Program-made: the position numbers and the translations under genes
Shown here: positions 6,196-50,274 of the stretch, one piece after another
Layout of the letters: the number at the start of each line of letters is the position of its first letter
How positions within the stretch are numbered: position 1 is the stretch's first letter
The notes under the pieces: model-generated
The model's database searches: none
Told to the model about the DNA's origin: nothing
What the model saw: only the letters and a program-made list of their open reading frames with translations
Assembly: GCA_963825135.1 (NCBI GenBank)
Contig: CAWGRW010000009.1
Coordinates: 321,008 to 385,007, forward strand
DNA from: an uncultured bacterium
GTDB taxonomy: Bacteria; Desulfobacterota_D; UBA1144; Nemesobacterales; UBA2774
DNA length: 64,000 bases
Direction: 5' to 3'

Positions 6196-6843
6196 TTACG
6201 CCCTCTCCACGACCAATATCGTCCTCGACTGCCCTCCGAAAGGCAGGGTGAAGTCGCTCCTCTCGGCGAGCCTGTATTCCTTACCCACCTCACTGAGGGC
6301 TGCCTCCCACTCTTCCCCTCCCCTCTGCCCCCTCATGAGAATTATTCCGCCCCCGGCGGCGAGATAAGGCTCGCTGAGACGGAGTATCCCGGGGATAGGC
6401 CCCACGGCCCTCGTGATAACACGCTGGAACCTACGCCTCTCTATGCCGTTCCCCTCGTCCTCCGCCCTGCCCCACACGGCCGTGATACCCCCGAGGCCGA
6501 GCGCGCGTATGACCTCCCGCATGAACACCACCTTCTTGTGTACGGAATCGAGGAGGGTGACCTCCAGCGACTCCGATATTATCTTTATCGGGATACCGGG
6601 GAACCCGGCGCCCGAGCCTATGTCGAGGAGGCGCGAGCCCTCGGGGACGAAGCGCGCGGCCGACAAGGAATCGAGGAAGTGGCCTGTCACTATGTCCCTG
6701 TCGCTCTTAAGCCCTGTGAGGTTTATCTTCTTGTTCCAGCTCTTGAGCTCCCGCAGGTAGAGCATGAAAAGGTCCCGCTCGGCGGAGGTGAGTTCCACAC
6801 CGACGAGGGACGCCCCCTCGCACAATAATTCCGCGGGCTTCAT
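6196..6843 (-). CDS. rsmG: 16S rRNA (guanine527-N7)-methyltransferase RsmG (GidB)
   Basis: 215 aa; SAM-binding motif LLDIGSGAGFPGIPIKI, conserved GidB N-terminal region (LYLRELKSWNKKINLTG). Confidence 0.85.
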   Translation of the reverse strand: MKPAELLCEGASLVGVELTSAERDLFMLYLRELKSWNKKINLTGLKSDRDIVTGHFLDSLSAARFVPEGSRLLDIGSGAGFPGIPIKIISESLEVTLLDSVHKKVVFMREVIRALGLGGITAVWGRAEDEGNGIERRRFQRVITRAVGPIPGILRLSEPYLAAGGGIILMRGQRGGEEWEAALSEVGKEYRLAERSDFTLPFGGQSRTILVVERA

Positions 6844-7610: not shown

Positions 7611-7680
7611 TAAAAACGAGCACGACGACTGGGTCTTTTCCGGGTTTCAAATTGATTTTCTCGTTTTTCGGATTTTAATT

Positions 7681-7764
7681 CCCTCCTTAGAAAAAGGAGG
7701 GTTAGGGAGGATTTGTCTTTTTCTTTATTTTAAATCCCCCTTAATCCCCCTTTTCCAAAGGGGG
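7681..7764. terminator. Intergenic region with two GC hairpins (ccctccttagaaaaaggaggg; cccccttttccaaaggggg) flanked by T/A runs; probable terminator(s) between trmI and the thermonuclease gene
   Basis: Perfect 8-bp and 5-bp stems seen in sequence; T-rich on plus strand, A/T-rich on minus strand; orientation ambiguous. Confidence 0.3.
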
Positions 7765-7803
7765 AAATACCGTATGCCACTCATTATTATCTCGTCCAAT
7801 AAT

Positions 7804-8595
7804 TTAAAGCCCCGGATCGCGCTTCTTCAAAGCCTTTCGGCCGAACGTAAGGAAGCCGGTGTGGCTCACCATGCGGTCCATGGGCCTCGTCTTGCCTGTG
7901 CTCACGCGGATATTCCTGACGAGCACCTCGATCGTCTCCAGGAAGACGAACCCCTCTTCGGCCAGCACCTCGACGCAGCGCTCCACCTGGTTGTACGTGG
8001 GCGACAGGCTGGCTATCCTGCCCCCGCCCCTGAGCGCGCGAGCGCCTGAAGCTATGCCGTCCCACGGCGACGGAAGGTCGAGCATGACCACATCGACCCC
8101 TTCCTCGTCGAAACCCTCCTGCGCTTCCCGCAGTTTGAATTCCACGAACTCGCCGAACCCCGCGCTCTCAACGTTCTTCCTCGCGTTCTCCATGAACTTC
8201 TCGCTCCTGTCGTACGCGTACACCCTCCCCGAGGGCGCCACGGCGTTGGCGAGAGCTATTGTGAGAGAGCCCGAACCCGAACCGCACTCGATCACCCTCA
8301 TGCCCGGGCCGAGCCCCGTCTTAAGCACTATCATCGCGGCGTCCTTCGGATAGATGATCTGCGTGTGCCTCTTCACCTTCATCATCCTGTCCTCGATAGT
8401 GGGCTCGAGCAGAACGTATGTGTGGAGGAGATTCGTCTGTATGGTGCTCCCGTATTCGAGCCCTATCGCTTTCCCGAGCTCTATATCGCCCAGATGAGTC
8501 CCCATCCGCTTCCCTTCGGCCACTGTAACGAGGTAGGTTTTTTCATCGGGGGACATTACGAGTACGGCGTCTCCGCTCTTTATGACCATTACCAC
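7804..8595 (-). CDS. trmI: tRNA (adenine57/58-N1)-methyltransferase TrmI (Gcd14 family)
   Basis: 263 aa; SAM motif GMRVIECGSGSGSLTIALA, Gcd14-type N-terminal beta domain and C-terminal region. Confidence 0.8.
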   Translation of the reverse strand: MVMVIKSGDAVLVMSPDEKTYLVTVAEGKRMGTHLGDIELGKAIGLEYGSTIQTNLLHTYVLLEPTIEDRMMKVKRHTQIIYPKDAAMIVLKTGLGPGMRVIECGSGSGSLTIALANAVAPSGRVYAYDRSEKFMENARKNVESAGFGEFVEFKLREAQEGFDEEGVDVVMLDLPSPWDGIASGARALRGGGRIASLSPTYNQVERCVEVLAEEGFVFLETIEVLVRNIRVSTGKTRPMDRMVSHTGFLTFGRKALKKRDPGL

Positions 8596-9781: not shown

Positions 9782-9913
9782 GTCGGCGTCTTGAAAACGC
9801 GGCTTAAACCGCTTAGATTTGATATGTAAATATTAAAGGATCGAGGGATGATATCATACACTCTGTCTTTGACAATGTATAATGTCGTGATATAGTTTAG
9901 CGCTTCAAAAATC

Positions 9914-9987
9914 GAGCCGTTAGCTCAGCTTGGTAGAGCAACTGACTTTTAATCAGTGGGTCACAGGTTCGAATCCTGTACGGCTCA
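9914..9987 (+). tRNA. tRNA-Lys (anticodon TTT)
   Basis: 74-nt cloverleaf folded by hand: acceptor GAGCCGT/ACGGCTC, D-arm GCTC..GAGC, anticodon arm ACTGA-CTTTTAA-TCAGT, T-arm ACAGG-TTCGAAT-CCTGT; CCA not encoded. Confidence 0.9.
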
Positions 9988-9998
9988 TACTCGTTTAC

Positions 9999-10073
9999 GT
10001 CCCCGTCGTCTAGCTCGGCCCAGGACATCGGCCTTTCACGCCGGTAACAGGGGTTCAAATCCCCTCGGGGACG
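9999..10073 (+). tRNA. tRNA-Glu (anticodon TTC)
   Basis: Near-identical to canonical bacterial tRNA-Glu (GTCCCCGTCGTCTAGC..GGCCTTTCACGCCGG..GGGGTTCAAATCCCCTCGGGGACG); acceptor GTCCCCG/CGGGGAC; 11 nt after tRNA-Lys. Confidence 0.9.
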
Positions 10074-10300
10074 CATCGCTTTCCCGAAGTACAGTAACAG
10101 AGTTGCCACTATCCAACAGCGACCGACTGCTCACTTGCTCGCAGTCGTTGGGGACGCATTTATTTCCCGGAGTACAGCAAAAATTCTGCCTTTGTTCAAA
10201 GGCGTCCAATTCCTCGCTCGCTCGGAATTGTTGGGGACGCATATATTTCCCGGAGTAAATTTACTTCACTGCACTTTTTCAAGGGCGTCCGGTCCCTGAG
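10074..10300 (+). repeat. Tandem array (2 full units + 1 truncated, ~84 nt each) abutting tRNA-Glu; each unit ends with a copy of the tRNA 3-prime end TTGGGGACGCA and carries a 7-bp hairpin with conserved 10-nt loop
   Basis: GGGGACGCA recurs at 10066-10074 (tRNA), 10150-10158, 10233-10241; hairpins cgactgc-tcacttgctc-gcagtcg (10124-10147) and caattcc-tcgctcgctc-ggaattg (10207-10230); same family as array at 47324-48233. Confidence 0.8.
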
Positions 10301-45641: not shown

Positions 45642-47042
45642 TTATAAATCCACGGGCAGGCAAATGGAAAATTTCGTAAAACCCGGCCTGGATTCAAAGC
45701 CAATAGTCCCCTTATGCTGATTTACGATAATACGATATGTTATCTCGAGCCCCAGCCCCGAACCCTCGCCGGGCGCCTTGGTAGTAAAAAAAGGATCAAA
45801 TATTTTATCCTGTATTTCCTGCGGGATCCCGTTGCCGTTATCGATAATTTCCACGTTCACCGTATCGGACCCGTTGCCGTTCATTCCCGTCCTTATCGTG
45901 ATCATCCCCTTCTCGGGAACTGCGTCGATCGCGTTGTCGATCATATTAGTCCATACCTGATTGAGCTCGCCGCCGTATGCGGATATCGCGGGAATTTTGT
46001 AGTCGAATTCTTTTTTCAGGGTTACGTTCTTTTTTTTAAGTTTGTGGTTCAGGATGATTATAGTATTTTCTATGCCTTCATGCAGATCGATCTTTCTTTT
46101 CTCATGCGCTTTGTCCATATAAGCGTAAGATTTCATTGCCGATACGAGCTCCGAAATCCTGGACGTGCTTTCGACGAGCTCCCTCACGAGCTTCCTCATT
46201 TCAACGTCCCTCGGGAGCCAATTCAAAAAATTCGTGACCTGGTCCGGTTTTAATTTCTCTGAAAAATCACTGAGTATTTTCTTGGTAAATCCGACGGAGA
46301 CAAGTGCCGATGCAAGCTCCCACGGCTCTCCGACGCCCTGCTCTTCCATCCAGCCTGTCAATTCATCTTCAAGCTCGTTTCGCTCTACCGCGTCGAGCTC
46401 CACACCGTCCACGTCTATGACATCTTCAATCGGCTGAAACGGATAACCGCTCTTATCGACTTCGTCTTTGAACATGTAGTATTTCAGTATCTCGGAGGAG
46501 AAGATGTCGAATTCGTATACAGTATTCGCCAGATTCTCCGCCGTCCTCTTTGAGGCCGATGCCGGGTTATTCAATTCATGGGCGAGGCCGGCCGCCATCG
46601 TTCCGAGCGAGGCCAGCTTTTCCCTTTGAAACGAGAGGTGCGTTAATTCAAACATCCTGCTCGACATATTGGACAATATTTTTCCTCTCACCGTCGAGCA
46701 GTTACCCAGCATGTACCAGAAATCATTCTCGTCCACGCTGAATATTCTCATATCCGTAACAGCTATCCCGTTTGCCATATGCGTCATTCCCGAGAGCAGA
46801 GGCACCTCGCCGCCGGACATCCCTTTTGTGAACCGGCCGATCTGGAGCTTTTCTCCCTTGATTATCCTGTAAATTTCGAGTGTGCCCTCGAGAAAGATAT
46901 AAAAACGCCTGGCGTGATCCCCCTCGCAAAAAAGATGTTCGCCTTTTTTCAATTCCACAATTACGCCCTTTACGTCCTCGTCCAACTCTTCGTCGGTAAT
47001 TTCCGAGAACAGGTCCATATCCTTCAATTCTCTTATAAACAT
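45642..47042 (-). CDS. Sensor histidine kinase with N-terminal cyclic-nucleotide-binding (cNMP/CAP-like) domain
   Basis: 466 aa; cNMP-binding fold (FCEGDHARRFYIFLEGTLEIYR), H-box LAHELNNPAS, HATPase N/G boxes (DNGNGIP, GSGLGLEI); 3-prime end overlaps REC-TrxR gene start. Confidence 0.8.
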   Translation of the reverse strand: MFIRELKDMDLFSEITDEELDEDVKGVIVELKKGEHLFCEGDHARRFYIFLEGTLEIYRIIKGEKLQIGRFTKGMSGGEVPLLSGMTHMANGIAVTDMRIFSVDENDFWYMLGNCSTVRGKILSNMSSRMFELTHLSFQREKLASLGTMAAGLAHELNNPASASKRTAENLANTVYEFDIFSSEILKYYMFKDEVDKSGYPFQPIEDVIDVDGVELDAVERNELEDELTGWMEEQGVGEPWELASALVSVGFTKKILSDFSEKLKPDQVTNFLNWLPRDVEMRKLVRELVESTSRISELVSAMKSYAYMDKAHEKRKIDLHEGIENTIIILNHKLKKKNVTLKKEFDYKIPAISAYGGELNQVWTNMIDNAIDAVPEKGMITIRTGMNGNGSDTVNVEIIDNGNGIPQEIQDKIFDPFFTTKAPGEGSGLGLEITYRIIVNQHKGTIGFESRPGFTKFSICLPVDL

Positions 47043-47249
47043 TGTATGGCACCCACTATAGAGTTAGATAATCCGGATGTCACAATCGCGCGCTCCCGAC
47101 AGGTGAACACTTAAAAGGTATTCTGATATAATATGTCAAGAAAATATAAAAAATCCAAGTCTTTATGTTTTTTTACGAATAAAACTATTGATGGACGGTA
47201 CAAAGTCTGTTATAGATATAAGCGTTTACGTTAACCCTGAAACATTCAC

Positions 47250-47323
47250 GTCCCCGTAGCTCAGAAGGATAGAGCGCAGGATTCCTAATCCTGAGGCCGG
47301 AGGTTCGAATCCTCTCGGGGACG
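47250..47323 (+). tRNA. tRNA-Arg (anticodon CCT)
   Basis: 74-nt cloverleaf: acceptor GTCCCCG/CGGGGAC, D-arm GCTC..GAGC, anticodon arm CAGGA-TTCCTAA-TCCTG, T-arm GGAGG-TTCGAAT-CCTCT; CCA not encoded. Confidence 0.9.
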
Positions 47324-48233
47324 CAACCATACAGATCTTCAATCGGTTCTTGCGCCGGAAGCTGGACGCATATCAGTCGGAGAATAGACATTGTTGCAAT
47401 TAACCTATGGCGTCCGATTCCTCCTATTCGTCGAAATCGTTCTCTCGGGGACGCAAAACTTTCCCTAAGCATAGTGGCTCTATTGCATTCTTCCAAAGGC
47501 GTCCGGTTCTTGCGCATCGCTCAGAAACCGTTCTCTCGGGGACGCAATAACTCAGTCCGGAGAATCAGTAACATTGTTGCAATTAACCTATGGCGTCCGA
47601 TTCCTCCTATTCGTCGAAATCGTTCTCTCGGGGACGCATAACTCAGTCCGGAGAAAGAAGTGAATAACATGGCGTCCGATTTCCTATCTCTGTACCATTC
47701 AGTCCGGTTAACATGGCAAAGTCGACTAGTCGAAACGTCCGGGACGCATAACTCAGTCCGGAGAATAGAACATTGTTGCAATTAACCTATGGCGTCCGAT
47801 TCCTCCATTCGTCGAAATCGTTCTCGGGGACGCATAACTCAGTCGGAATAGAACAGCTGGATCTATTCGTCGAAATCGGGGACGCATAACAGTCCGGAGA
47901 ATAGTAACATTGTTGCAATTAACCTATGGCGTCCGATTCCTCCTATTCGTCGAAATCGTTCTCTCGGGGACGCATAACTCAGTCCGAAGAATAGTAACAT
48001 TGTTGCAATCAACCTAAGGCGTCCAATTGCTCACTTGTTCGCAATTGTTTCTCGGGGACGCAGCAATTTACCAAAGTACAGTGACCATGTTGCATTCTTT
48101 CAAAGGCGTCCAATTTAGTTTGGTTTCAGTAGATCATCCCGAGAACATTGGCATTGTTGCAATTAGCATAGGGCGACCGGTTTCTCACTTGCTCGAAACC
48201 GTTACTTGTTCGCAATTGTTTCTCGGGGACGCA
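47324..48233 (+). repeat. ~910-nt tandem array of ~10 units (52-171 nt, modal 85-92) directly abutting tRNA-Arg; every unit ends in (C)TCGGGGACGCA (copy of the tRNA 3-prime end) and contains a tRNA-3-prime-half-like remnant with a 7-bp hairpin
   Basis: GGGGACGCA at 47317, 47447, 47538, 47630, (47741), 47826, 47878, 47966, 48054, 48225; unit consensus TAACTCAGTCCGGAGAATAGTAACATTGTTGCAATTAACCTATGGCGTCCGATTCCTCCTATTCGTCGAAATCGTTCTCTCGGGGACGCA. Confidence 0.85.
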
Positions 48234-48494
48234 CACACAATGTATGCTCATAGAGGTTTCCTATGAAACTCTTCCTATTTCCCAGGTAGCCTAGGAGCGG
48301 CTTCCAGCCGCAACCTTTTTTCGAAGTGCTGAGTCAGGGTTGCCAATTGACAATGTCCTCCAATTGTTCATTATCCCGGAATCGTTAATGCACATTATAT
48401 AAGATGGGGGACGCGGCCGGCAGGATGCACCGATATTTTCAATTTCTTAAAAAATTAGTCTGTCATAATCAAAAAATATCATTATAATTCGGGG

Positions 48495-50274
48495 ATGATG
48501 AAATCCGTTCTACCCATTCTGTTGATACTTCTGTTTGCACTTTCCTGCGACTCCTCAGGTCCCGGAAACTCGGCGAACGTTTTCGGAGACAATGTGCCCG
48601 ATCCGGATGCAGTCGCCGAGGGCCCTGTCGAGAGCGACGTAGTCCTGGACATCGTACTCGGGCTCGCGCGCTCTCAGGATAGTCTCGCCGAGAGAGTCGA
48701 TGAGCTCCACGATCCGGGCTCCCCTCATTATCACGATTTCAGGAGCGTTCCGGAGATCGCCGAGGAGTTCGGGGCCGACGATTCGGCAATAAAGACAGTG
48801 CAGGAATACCTGGACGGGCTTGGCATTTCCTTGACCGCCGATGCCACAAAGGGATTTCTTCACGGCCGGGCGACGGCTGCGCAGCTGGATCAGCTTTTCG
48901 ACACGGAGCTTTTTTATTACAAGATAGACGAAGGCACTTTTATTGCGCCCTCGATAGCGCCTTCGCTCCCCGCGGCGCTTAACGGACTTGTGACGGAGGT
49001 TCTGGGTTTAAGCACCGAGCCTTCTCTCTGGGAAATCTCCCCATCCGACAGATTCCGAGACCGCTCTCGGCCCATCCGTTGCAATCGACACGCCGGGCTC
49101 CCCGACAGTCACGGGGACCCGCGAGGGGTGCGCCGACGCCCTCAAGCAAAAAGGCTTCACCCCGAACCAGTTTCGAACGGCTTACGGGATCGATGACCTT
49201 CACGAGCTCGGTTTCGAAGGGCAGGGCATCACAATGGCCCTCGTCGAGGGAACCAGTTTCGAGCAATCGAATATCGATAAGTTCACATCCTGTTTCGGAA
49301 TTTCCAATCCCGTCGTTCCGACGGTCGTCCAGCTGGGAAGCGACGAGCTCAAACCCGACGGAGAACCGTTTCTCGATATTGAAACAGCTCTAATGATCGC
49401 CCCCAAGCTCTCGGGGCTTTACGTTTTTCAAGAGAAACTCAATTCCCTGGCCGACTGGATCACGCTCTTCTCCGCGCCGCTCAACACCAAGCACACGGCG
49501 GGGGTTCCCGTGCAGATAATGTCGGGGAGTCTCGGAAACTGCGAGGTCAAATGGGGGTTTGCGGCAATTAGTACGCTGGAATTCGTATTCATGAACGCGG
49601 CAGCTTCAGGGGTGCACGTGTTTATCTCCGCGGGAGACAGCGGCTCGTCCACATGTTTCCACCACGATAAAAAGACCAAGACCAAGTCCGCCGAGTATCC
49701 CGCGTCGTCGCAATACGTCACAGGCGTCGGCGGGACTAACCTTGCGCTCAATGAGGACAACACGATCAAGGGAGAGGGCGTATGGAACGACCAGGATTTC
49801 CCCGCTCCCTACAACAAAAAGTTTGGAGCCGGCGGCGGCGGCAAAAGCATGTTCCTCTCGAGACCTCTCTGGCAGAAGGGAACGAAAATAAAGGGCTTCA
49901 GGAGGACGACGCCCGACGTGGCATTCTTCGCCGATCCTTTTCCGGGCTACGTCATAAACGACTCGCTGAAAGGCTGGTTCGATAACGGGGGCACGAGCGC
50001 CGCGACGCCGTTTTTCGCCGCGTCCATGGCCCTCGTGCTCCAGGCCGCGAAGGAAAACGACGTAACCCTCGACCTCACTTACGAGCTAATCTACAAGCTC
50101 GCGAACAGCGACGCCTACGACGGGGTTTTTCAGGACGTGGTCATAGGGAATAACGACCTCTTCGACGTCGGCTGCTGCACTGCGGGACCGCGTTACGATA
50201 TGGCAAGCGGGTGGGGATCGCTCAACATCAATTCCCTGGCCGAAGTCTTGATCCCGGGGTTGGGGAACCGATAG
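48495..50274 (+). CDS. S53-family (sedolisin/kumamolisin-like) serine peptidase with pro-domain, split by apparent frameshift near 49030-49060
   Basis: ORF 48495..49196: signal/lipobox + pro-kumamolisin activation domain; ORF 49234..50274: catalytic domain with SGDSGSS and GGTSAATPFFAA (Ser nucleophile); frame of ORF2 stays open upstream to ~49020. Confidence 0.75.

Follow-up and report, generated by a model that had tools for sequence, protein, structure and literature searches.

We analysed a 64-kb stretch of DNA (the window) from an uncultured Thermodesulfobacteriota lineage of the sulfate-reducer type (assembly GCA_963825135.1, contig CAWGRW010000009.1), in which a gene for tRNA-Arg(CCT) is followed by a tandem array of short units, each ending in a copy of the 3' end of that tRNA. 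A first-pass annotation had described ten segments ending in GGACGCA behind the tRNA, and this was borne out by ARAGORN, Rfam, splitting of the sequence, TRF and shuffles. Cutting after every GGACGCA downstream of the tRNA yielded segments of 45, 85, 91, 92, 110, 86, 52, 88, 88 and 171 nt, the last ending at 48233, and tandem periods of ~88-91 nt were found by TRF and a repeat finder. The acceptor end CGGGGACGCA is present in 10 copies in the window, all on the plus strand: two are tRNA ends (Arg and Glu) and eight lie in units of the Arg array. The mean expectation from shuffled sequences was 0.21, and 10 copies were reached in none of 100 shuffles. Two open reading frames (ORFs) described as spurious and as sharing the peptide SPRERFRRIGGIGRHRLIATM do exist, on the minus strand, and are artefacts of the repeats.

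The last 14 nt of the tRNA-Arg, CTCTCGGGGACGCA, are the block that is copied in the units. It takes in the final four bases of the T stem (3' strand), the acceptor stem (3' strand), the discriminator and the CA that comes next. It had been given as 11-12 nt long and is usually 14 nt. Among the ten segments of the window Arg array the suffix identical to the tRNA measured 13-14 nt in six, 11 nt in one, 8 nt in one and 7 nt in one, the shortest (7-8 nt) belonging to the segments that end at 47370 and 47748. The components of the array are listed below, with bit scores from a covariance model (CM) of the unit.

47250-47325, plus strand: tRNA-Arg(CCT), found by ARAGORN and by the Rfam tRNA model (69.8 bits) with calls at 47250-47323/4; the mature end is the G at 47323, followed by CA
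47326-47370, plus strand: decayed or truncated unit, 45 nt, retaining half of a hairpin (CGGTTCTTGCGC); ends in GGACGCA and has a 7-nt suffix in common with the tRNA
47371-47455, plus strand: unit 1, 85 nt, with a 'type 1' 5' part and hairpin CGATTCC/GAAATCG; CM 87.7 bits
47456-47546, plus strand: unit 2, 91 nt, with a 'type 2' 5' part (TTTCCCTAAG) and hairpin CGGTTCT/AGAAACCG; CM 81.4 bits
47547-47638, plus strand: unit 3, 92 nt, type 1; CM 93.6 bits
47639-47748, plus strand: irregular 110-nt segment, a rearranged unit ending in TCCGGGACGCA; weak partial CM match at 47669-47748
47749-47834, plus strand: unit 5, 86 nt, type 1; CM 81.2 bits
47835-47886, plus strand: internally deleted unit, 52 nt, with an 11-nt suffix in common with the tRNA
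47887-47974, plus strand: unit 7, 88 nt, type 1, the top score of the family model; CM 100.7 bits
47975-48062, plus strand: unit 8, 88 nt, hairpin CAATTGC/GCAATTG; CM 87 bits
48063-48233, plus strand: composite unit, 171 nt, consisting of an outer unit whose hairpin loop contains a unit-like module (48130-48214)
48234-48246, plus strand: palindrome CACACAATGTATG, adjoining the last full unit in the window
48313-48415, plus strand: degenerate distal unit ending in GGGGGACGCG; CM 22.5 bits at 48313-48392

The array had been thought to end at 48233; the degenerate unit extends the repeats to ~48415. The covariance model was built from 26 units and the window was searched with speed filters off. 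Convincing matches were confined to two places, the trailers of tRNA-Arg and of tRNA-Glu. The tRNA-Glu lies in an operon with tRNA-Lys, has the same acceptor stem as the tRNA-Arg and shares with it the acceptor end CGGGGACGCA. The two full units behind it end in GTTGGGGACGCA and have a 9-nt suffix identical to the tRNA.

9914-10075, plus strand: tRNA-Lys(TTT) at 9914-9987 and tRNA-Glu(TTC) at 9999-10073, then CA (ARAGORN)
10076-10297, plus strand: second array of the same unit family, with units at 10076-10158 and 10159-10241 and a partial unit at 10242-10297; CM 77.8, 76.5 and 29.8 bits

Species-representative genomes and JGI metagenomes were searched by pattern scans, and many chance or unrelated matches (CRISPR arrays, GC-rich palindromic repeats, coding repeats) were set aside. 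This search for copies in related genomes, proposed as a check in the first-pass annotation, yielded thirteen homologous arrays (L001, L002, L005, L009, L014, L025, L027, which is the same as L051, L031, L035, L037, L045, L049 and L050), all behind tRNA-Arg(CCT) or tRNA-Glu(TTC) where the upstream end was present. L001 and L005 are from Thermodesulfobacteriota metagenome-assembled genomes, L002 is from an 'uncultured delta proteobacterium' and L009 is also from a genome; the other nine arrays are metagenomic. Where the contig included the upstream end, the array followed directly after tRNA-Arg(CCT), after a partial copy of it or after a tRNA-Lys/tRNA-Glu(TTC) pair, and lay on the tRNA strand. 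At distant loci the neighbours are other genes: a glycosyltransferase and a GH130 enzyme at L009, a copper chaperone and a DUF1326 protein at L037. Since the gene neighbourhoods differ among loci, the arrays associate with the tRNA and not with the neighbourhood. The number of units per array ranged from 1 to 10, with 1-4 in the relatives. Synteny searches by way of the peptidase gene downstream of the window Arg array gave two homologues only, both on ~2-kb contigs broken just upstream of the gene, and an exact look-up of the window acetate kinase gave no match.

Comparison of these arrays revealed three variants of the 14-nt suffix, which is 14 nt long in most units of the relatives. The variant CTCTCGGGGACGCA stands behind tRNA-Arg, CCCTCGGGGACGCA behind tRNA-Glu (L005, L014, L027 and L049) and CTGCCGGGGACGCA behind the tRNA-Arg of L050, starting with CTCTC, CCCTC and CTGCC, respectively. 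The T stem of the L050 tRNA-Arg is GCAGG/CCUGC. Exceptions to this tracking of the tRNA were one Glu-type end in the Arg array of L037 and the shortened ends in the Glu array of the window. Unit ends are thus kept identical to the adjacent tRNA, with a sharp boundary at tRNA position 62.

All units, the two 'types' included, could be aligned end to end. From 5' to 3' a unit consists of an A/U-rich linker (~7 nt), UUCCCGRAG, a largely unpaired conserved stretch (..ACANUGUUGCA..), GGCGWCC, a 7-bp hairpin, GUU and the 14-nt copy of the tRNA end. A/T makes up 80% of the linkers, in which G is nearly absent, and 49% of whole units. The ~45 nt that had been set apart as non-tRNA sequence are homologous among all units and begin with a stretch complementary to the 3' block. 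Two motifs described as degenerate tRNA copies, GATTCCT and TCGAAATCG, are present in one hairpin variant but do not extend to the whole family.

The hairpin has a loop of 10-11 nt, and the GUU that follows it is invariant. In the alignment 94.5% of hairpin cells were paired, and changes on both sides were found in five of the seven pairs (26 cells). None of 500 shuffles reached the observed number of paired cells, the number of double-change cells or the covariation score, while the number of hairpin pairs with a double change was matched by 49 of the 500. As a control, partners were slid by 1-3 columns, and the signal collapsed. Ten distinct, perfectly complementary Watson-Crick stems were counted. 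Because the stem sequence is free while the pairing is kept, selection acts on pairing, which points to a folded single strand and not to a protein site on duplex DNA.

A second pairing would join the beginning of the unit to the tRNA-derived block. This proposed closing helix (UUCCCG/CGGGGA) was 89% paired, its sole variation being a one-sided C-to-U change that preserves a G.U pair, and it is present in the minimum free energy (MFE) folds of type 2 units. When a partner inside the unit was sought for the three bases that track the tRNA, a two-sided change was found in L050a only; in this unit, whose adjacent tRNA has a different T stem, the closing helix changes on both sides from G-C to U.G. 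A full cloverleaf unit was considered and rejected: a closing stem and a hairpin recur, but two small inner stems in some of the MFE folds were by eye not conserved, and tRNA models gave no match. Neither ARAGORN nor Rfam at E<=10 found a tRNA cloverleaf in the units, there being a single tRNA call in the region, and the unit model scored the real tRNA at only 13.5 bits. When 46900-48600 was compared with Rfam (cmscan, E<=10), the tRNA and three chance-level matches were all that came back; neither RtT RNA nor any other catalogued family beyond tRNA matched.

Turnover of the units could be followed between relatives. Upstream of the array, L002 and the window share 97% identity across 3.7 kb, yet L002 has two full units against ten in the window, with the same degenerate unit at the distal end. 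This distal unit is kept at the distal array end in L045 as well, and the partial distal unit of the window Glu array is kept in L027. Thus tRNA-distal units are degenerate yet kept among relatives, and proximal units turn over. Inside the window array, near-identical blocks span unit junctions (for example 47536-47655 and 47876-47991, 96%), and a two-unit block (47364-47504) is repeated 604 nt downstream. This is the pattern expected of unequal recombination or slippage within a tandem array.

The palindrome CACACAATGTGTG, which in the window reads CACACAATGTATG, marks the distal border of the full units here and likewise in L001, L002, L005, L009, L031, L035 and L049. In relatives the same palindrome opens a second repeated module ending in ..GCGGATGCTATCCGC, and there is a third recurring module, GTTCATCCTGAG..AGGATGAAC. 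In this clade, tRNA trailers are built as mosaics from several kinds of hairpin module.

Signals for transcription were sought by consensus scans and by eye, with the following sites found:

47188-47216, plus strand: putative promoter of the tRNA-Arg transcription unit, TTGATG and TATAGA with a 17-nt spacer, read by eye
48297-48321, plus strand: terminator-like site matching the consensus, GCGGCTTCCAGCCGC followed by AACCTTTTTT, the sole plus-strand site of its kind downstream of tRNA-Arg
9869-9896, plus strand: promoter-like site of the tRNA-Lys/tRNA-Glu operon, TTGACA and TATAGT with a 16-nt spacer, 11 of 12 matches

The TTGATG/TATAGA motif is kept upstream of tRNA-Arg in L001, L002 and L009, and the promoter scan made no call for it. 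The consensus scan found no promoter-like site inside the Arg array or, on the minus strand, directed towards it; nor did it find a plus-strand terminator-like site between tRNA-Arg and 48297. The genes adjoining the Arg array include no obvious source of antisense transcription.

Arrays of comparable architecture have been described in Escherichia coli as tRNA-linked repeats (TLRs). Egan and Landy first observed them in 1978, and Rudd catalogued them in 1999; ten loci have 1-5 repeats each, 22 in all (PMC8144298). Their defining trait is a 3' stretch of 18-19 nt identical to the end of the upstream tRNA or rRNA, and the repeat has been proposed as a processing signal (PMC8144298). Most of them are without known function; in vitro, CsrA and Hfq are bound by the TLRs RrA/B/F (PMC8144298). 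We re-derived the tyrT-tyrV locus of E. coli K-12, where the units measure 175-178 nt and every one of them is closed by the final 19 nt of tRNA-Tyr. In the MFE fold of the annotated RttR unit, an internal segment, GGGGAAGGAU, forms a 10-bp helix with the tRNA-derived AUCCUUCCCC. This predicted helix is of the same design as the closing helix that we propose for the window units.

Like the E. coli repeats, the window arrays are tandem, lie directly downstream of a tRNA on its strand and start after the CA (at 47326 and 10076). Each unit closes with a copy of the 3' end of its tRNA, which begins in the T arm and takes in the 3' strand of the acceptor, and contains an upstream segment complementary to that copy. 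Several loci per genome are likewise a common trait (two within the 64 kb analysed here). The differences are of degree and of kind. The copied end is 14 nt with no encoded CCA in place of 18-19 nt including CCA, and units are ~88 nt instead of 100-180 nt. There are up to ten units plus one degenerate unit in the Arg array, which exceeds the E. coli range of 1-5 per locus, and 2.5 units in the Glu array. Unlike the E. coli TLRs, a single family here occupies two tRNAs and has a covarying hairpin, nested composites and occasional copies away from tRNAs. The hosts also differ, an uncultured member of the Thermodesulfobacteriota and an enterobacterium. No sequence similarity was found between RtT RNA and the window units, and the unit model had no match at the E. 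coli locus.

A further array, on the metagenomic contigs L026 and L032 (L032 56-302, minus strand), comes from a GC-rich (62%) lineage. There, at least two 86-nt units stand behind a tRNA-Glu, each ending in the last 20 nt of the tRNA and having a 9-bp helix (GCGGGAUUU/AAAUCCCGC). The 5' strand of the T stem is included, as though 41 nt had been added to the T loop, and both contigs break in the array. This is an independent, unrelated TLR-like family and a third version of the design. A different precedent is 3'ETS-leuZ of the E. coli glyW-cysT-leuZ operon, a small RNA (sRNA) cut from a tRNA 3' external transcribed spacer (PMC8144298). As in our proposal below, it is an RNA from the trailer of a tRNA operon, released by tRNA-processing nucleases; it differs from the window units in being single-copy, in having no copy of the tRNA end and in having an experimentally defined sponge function. 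Searches for literature other than the TLR papers (Geobacter/Pelobacter 'multicopy sequences', tRNA-like tandem repeats) yielded nothing relevant.

The reading that we prefer, and hold with somewhat more belief than doubt, is that these units constitute a new, lineage-specific TLR family whose arrays form the 3' trailers of tRNA-Arg(CCT) and of tRNA-Lys/Glu operons, are co-transcribed with them, are probably cut at their tRNA-like ends and are amplified by unequal recombination. We infer that the tRNA promoter drives transcription of the array as a single precursor. The acceptor-like closing helix together with the A/U-rich linker would then create a tRNA-type processing site at each unit end, to be recognised by RNase Z or RNase E on the 3' side and possibly by RNase P on the 5' side, and cleavage there would divide the trailer into RNAs of unit length. 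The array would grow and shrink through unequal recombination or slippage during replication between its repeated ends, and the same process would homogenise the unit ends with the tRNA. The released RNAs may be sRNAs, sponges, mimics of the tRNA end or tolerated by-products; a function as decoy or tRNA mimic is possible whether the units are TLRs or mobile modules. Of the two earlier suggestions, that of small structured RNA genes mimicking the 3' part of a tRNA receives real support, the points in its favour being the compensatory changes in five of seven pairs, the tRNA strand and the lack of an internal promoter-like site or of a terminator-like site before 48297.

Several observations weigh against this reading. 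Type 1 units, the majority in the window, fold poorly and without the closing helix, and the folding energies of units are no better than those of shuffles (z from +0.7 to -2.1). Because its 3' strand is invariant, the closing helix is unprovable by covariation. The alternative, a pairing of GCGUC with GACGC, reaches 95%, and a T-to-A polymorphism breaks it in 6 of 26 units; it is inseparable from UUCCCG/CGGGGA by covariation, the common 3' strand of the two never varying. In a fold of the 171-nt composite both pairings are nested and can form together, the whole 14-nt block then being paired. Wobble counts do not tell which strand folds (G.U 5, A.C 7), and most of the A.C cases come from one widespread variant. 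Co-transcription of array and tRNA is a conclusion drawn from consensus scans, and the terminator-like site at 48297-48321 is not kept in L002. Copy numbers were taken from short-read assemblies and may be wrong. Finally, near-identical composites stand at two different tRNA loci, and a non-tRNA intergenic region of L027 (6081-6383) contains two unit-like copies in opposite orientation with 3' ends not derived from a tRNA. The inner part of the composites is 91-95% identical between Arg arrays (window, L001) and the Glu array of L027, with ~95% for the window composite, and flanking coding DNA is ~88% identical. The orthologous intergenic site is ~300 nt shorter and empty in the window (about 7650-7803), in L005 and in L014. 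The L027 region also holds a copy of the GCGGCTTCCAGCCGC hairpin. The off-tRNA copies and the cross-locus composites fit a mobile element better than purely local duplication.

The main rival accordingly takes the units for non-autonomous mobile modules, miniature integrative or MITE-like (miniature inverted-repeat transposable element), which a recombinase or transposase encoded elsewhere inserts at tRNA ends of the form ..CGGGGACGCA, each insertion bringing its own copy of the tRNA end, so that arrays would accumulate beside the tRNA. We judge this unlikely, if the most serious of the alternatives. Apart from the copies in L027 and the composites just described, it would account for one unit family behind two tRNAs that have little in common beyond the acceptor stem, for a unit nested in the hairpin loop of another, for the invariant GTT that always stands at the right edge of the hairpin module, for a boundary of tRNA identity that is sharp and always at 14 nt, and for distal units that are the most degenerate and are kept among relatives. 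However, the junction-spanning duplications and the recurring two-unit block are the mark of unequal crossing-over and not of one-by-one insertion, an 88-bp double-stranded circle is implausible as an integration substrate, and freely varying stems argue against sequence-specific protein sites. The main ORFs up to ~8 kb from each window array gave no match to an integrase or transposase domain, and neither did the ORFs scanned beside the L009 and L037 arrays, of which three matched nothing in Pfam; near the window arrays a few ORFs are left that are small or unmatched. The ORFs scanned near arrays likewise included no Y1 transposase or RAYT-type gene. BLAST with the complete array as query found nothing in plasmid or phage collections, and among viral contigs none carried the tRNA-Arg 3' end, the scan with the unit pattern giving one chance match (L053). 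A broader conjecture, doubtful in our estimation, is that the units are either a self-propagating non-autonomous element or selected mimics of the tRNA acceptor that colonise tRNA 3' ends with one acceptor sequence, move from Arg to Glu or the reverse and ride on tRNA transcription and processing. If so, TLR-type repeats would in general be the footprint of a mobile RNA or DNA module targeting tRNA ends and not debris of local duplication.

In another explanation the units are tRNA-end mimics serving as decoys: the released acceptor-like helix with its 3' tail would titrate a protein that binds acceptor ends (a processing enzyme, a toxin or a modification enzyme), and a multicopy array would raise the dose. 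The 3' block is indeed kept identical to the tRNA, variants of the T stem included, and the 5' segment, which can pair with that block, resembles a tRNA 5' end (TTCCCGTAGCACA compared with TCCCCGTAGCTCA in L050). Sponge-type RNAs with many motifs are moreover a known design, with a precedent in RrA/B/F (PMC8144298). Yet Rfam (E<=10) and ARAGORN do not score the units as tRNAs, the 6-7 nt between hairpin and acceptor-like strand preclude a coaxial acceptor/T-arm stack, no candidate partner gene is linked to the arrays, and the truncated or rearranged state of several window units would be odd under dosage selection. We regard this explanation as quite improbable. Still less credible is the idea, raised in the first-pass annotation, of a fossil stack left by serial integrations and excisions of ordinary integrative elements with nearly all cargo deleted. 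In its favour, direct copies of the tRNA 3' end flank every unit in the manner of attachment (att) sites, and L045 (minus strand) carries partial copies of the tRNA-Arg 3' end, one of ~23 nt (about 3930-3897) and one of ~47 nt (3548-3502), separated by ~330 nt of AT-rich DNA. These copies, which lie upstream of the unit array on a contig with no intact tRNA, look like attachment-site scars of an integrative element as far as their sequence goes, but they differ in length from the 14-nt block. Independent deletions of cargo would not leave units that are homologous over their whole length, equal in length and furnished with a covarying hairpin; the same units stand behind a second tRNA, the duplications span junctions and no viral contig has the tRNA-Arg end. 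Hardly any weight is due to an assembly artefact, a collapsed or mis-joined repeat region. Related contigs do often break at or inside arrays (L025, L026, L032, L035, L049, L055 and L056), which makes copy number uncertain, but the ten segments differ from one another, and thirteen independent assemblies have the same architecture behind the same two tRNAs. An artefact is excluded for the existence of the array, not for its exact copy number.

The exclusion of CRISPR, integron attC, REP/BIME (repetitive extragenic palindromic sequence/bacterial interspersed mosaic element) and ToxI arrays made in the first-pass annotation holds as far as our tests reached. In a CRISPR array the parts between 'repeats' would not be homologous across units and genomes, as they are here, and no cas domains were found within ~8 kb. 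The attC site of integrons does not fit, as GTT is followed by CTCT where RRRY would be expected, ~35 nt separate the hairpin from the 5' partner and no integrase is nearby. REP/BIME elements resemble the window units in their hairpin modules, mosaic tandem arrangement, location at 3' ends of transcription units and strain-variable copy number. They are, however, much shorter, lack a copy of the tRNA end and are conserved in sequence within a genome, whereas the stems here vary and within the window the units occur only behind two tRNAs. Mobilisation by RAYT was rejected, the CM matches in the window being confined to the two tRNA trailers and no Y1 transposase domain being present in the ORFs scanned. 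A type III toxin-antitoxin system (ToxI-like) was dismissed, the neighbours being a peptidase pair downstream and a histidine kinase upstream. Integrative and cis-mobilisable elements accrete at tRNA genes, and Williams is said to have distinguished, in 2002, sublocation classes of integration at these genes. Duplications of att sites have in common with the window units that they are direct repeats of the tRNA 3' end, with an identity boundary in the T arm, stacked beside the tRNA. The elements they flank are kilobases long and carry an integrase, in contrast to the 74 nt of conserved structured 'cargo' and the block duplications across junctions found here.

The architecture has thus already been named and has a precedent in the E. 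coli TLRs, and the window is an unusually large example of a poorly understood class. Finding the TLR design (a copy of the tRNA end, an internal complement and tandem trailer units) in a distant lineage, and again in L026/L032, suggests that it arises repeatedly or is widespread. The window family is large and diverse enough for comparison, and has provided a compensatory hairpin and a 3' block that tracks the tRNA, neither of which is available for the E. coli repeats. The data yield concrete predictions on transcripts, cleavage sites and turnover. For annotation, the arrays explain contig breaks next to these tRNA genes in the clade.

The Arg array lies between a histidine kinase gene upstream and a pair of ORFs for a sedolisin-type peptidase downstream. 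In agreement with the earlier statement that no integrase, cas or toxN genes flank the array, none of the main ORFs up to ~8 kb from either array in the window had a Pfam domain of integrase, transposase, cas or toxN type. The peptidase is split into 48495-49196 (pro-kumamolisin activation domain) and 49234-50274 (Peptidase_S8); its homologue P0001 likewise consists of two overlapping calls, so that a frameshift or a genuine two-gene arrangement may be involved. Just 5' of the tRNA-Lys/Glu operon lie a gene like that of the tRNA m1A-methyltransferase (GCD14/TrmI family; 7804-8595) and a GidB gene (6196-6843), both probably unrelated to the repeats. G+C content is 0.467 at 46001-48000, where the tRNA-Arg and array are located, and roughly 0.52-0.60 in the adjoining 2-kb bins.

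The pattern scans also gave by-catch of other kinds. L010 is an ordinary CRISPR array, and L007 (Microbacterium) consists of 73-nt tandem hairpin units. A palindrome, GTAGGGGACGCA-CACCGGGCGTCCCG, underlies the tandem arrays (period 28-92 nt) that were recovered at L016, L022, L028, L039, L041, L043, L012 and L015 (metagenome contigs Ga0123353 and Ga0082212). No tRNA was present in the 200 nt shown upstream of these arrays, which form a separate, REP-like family.

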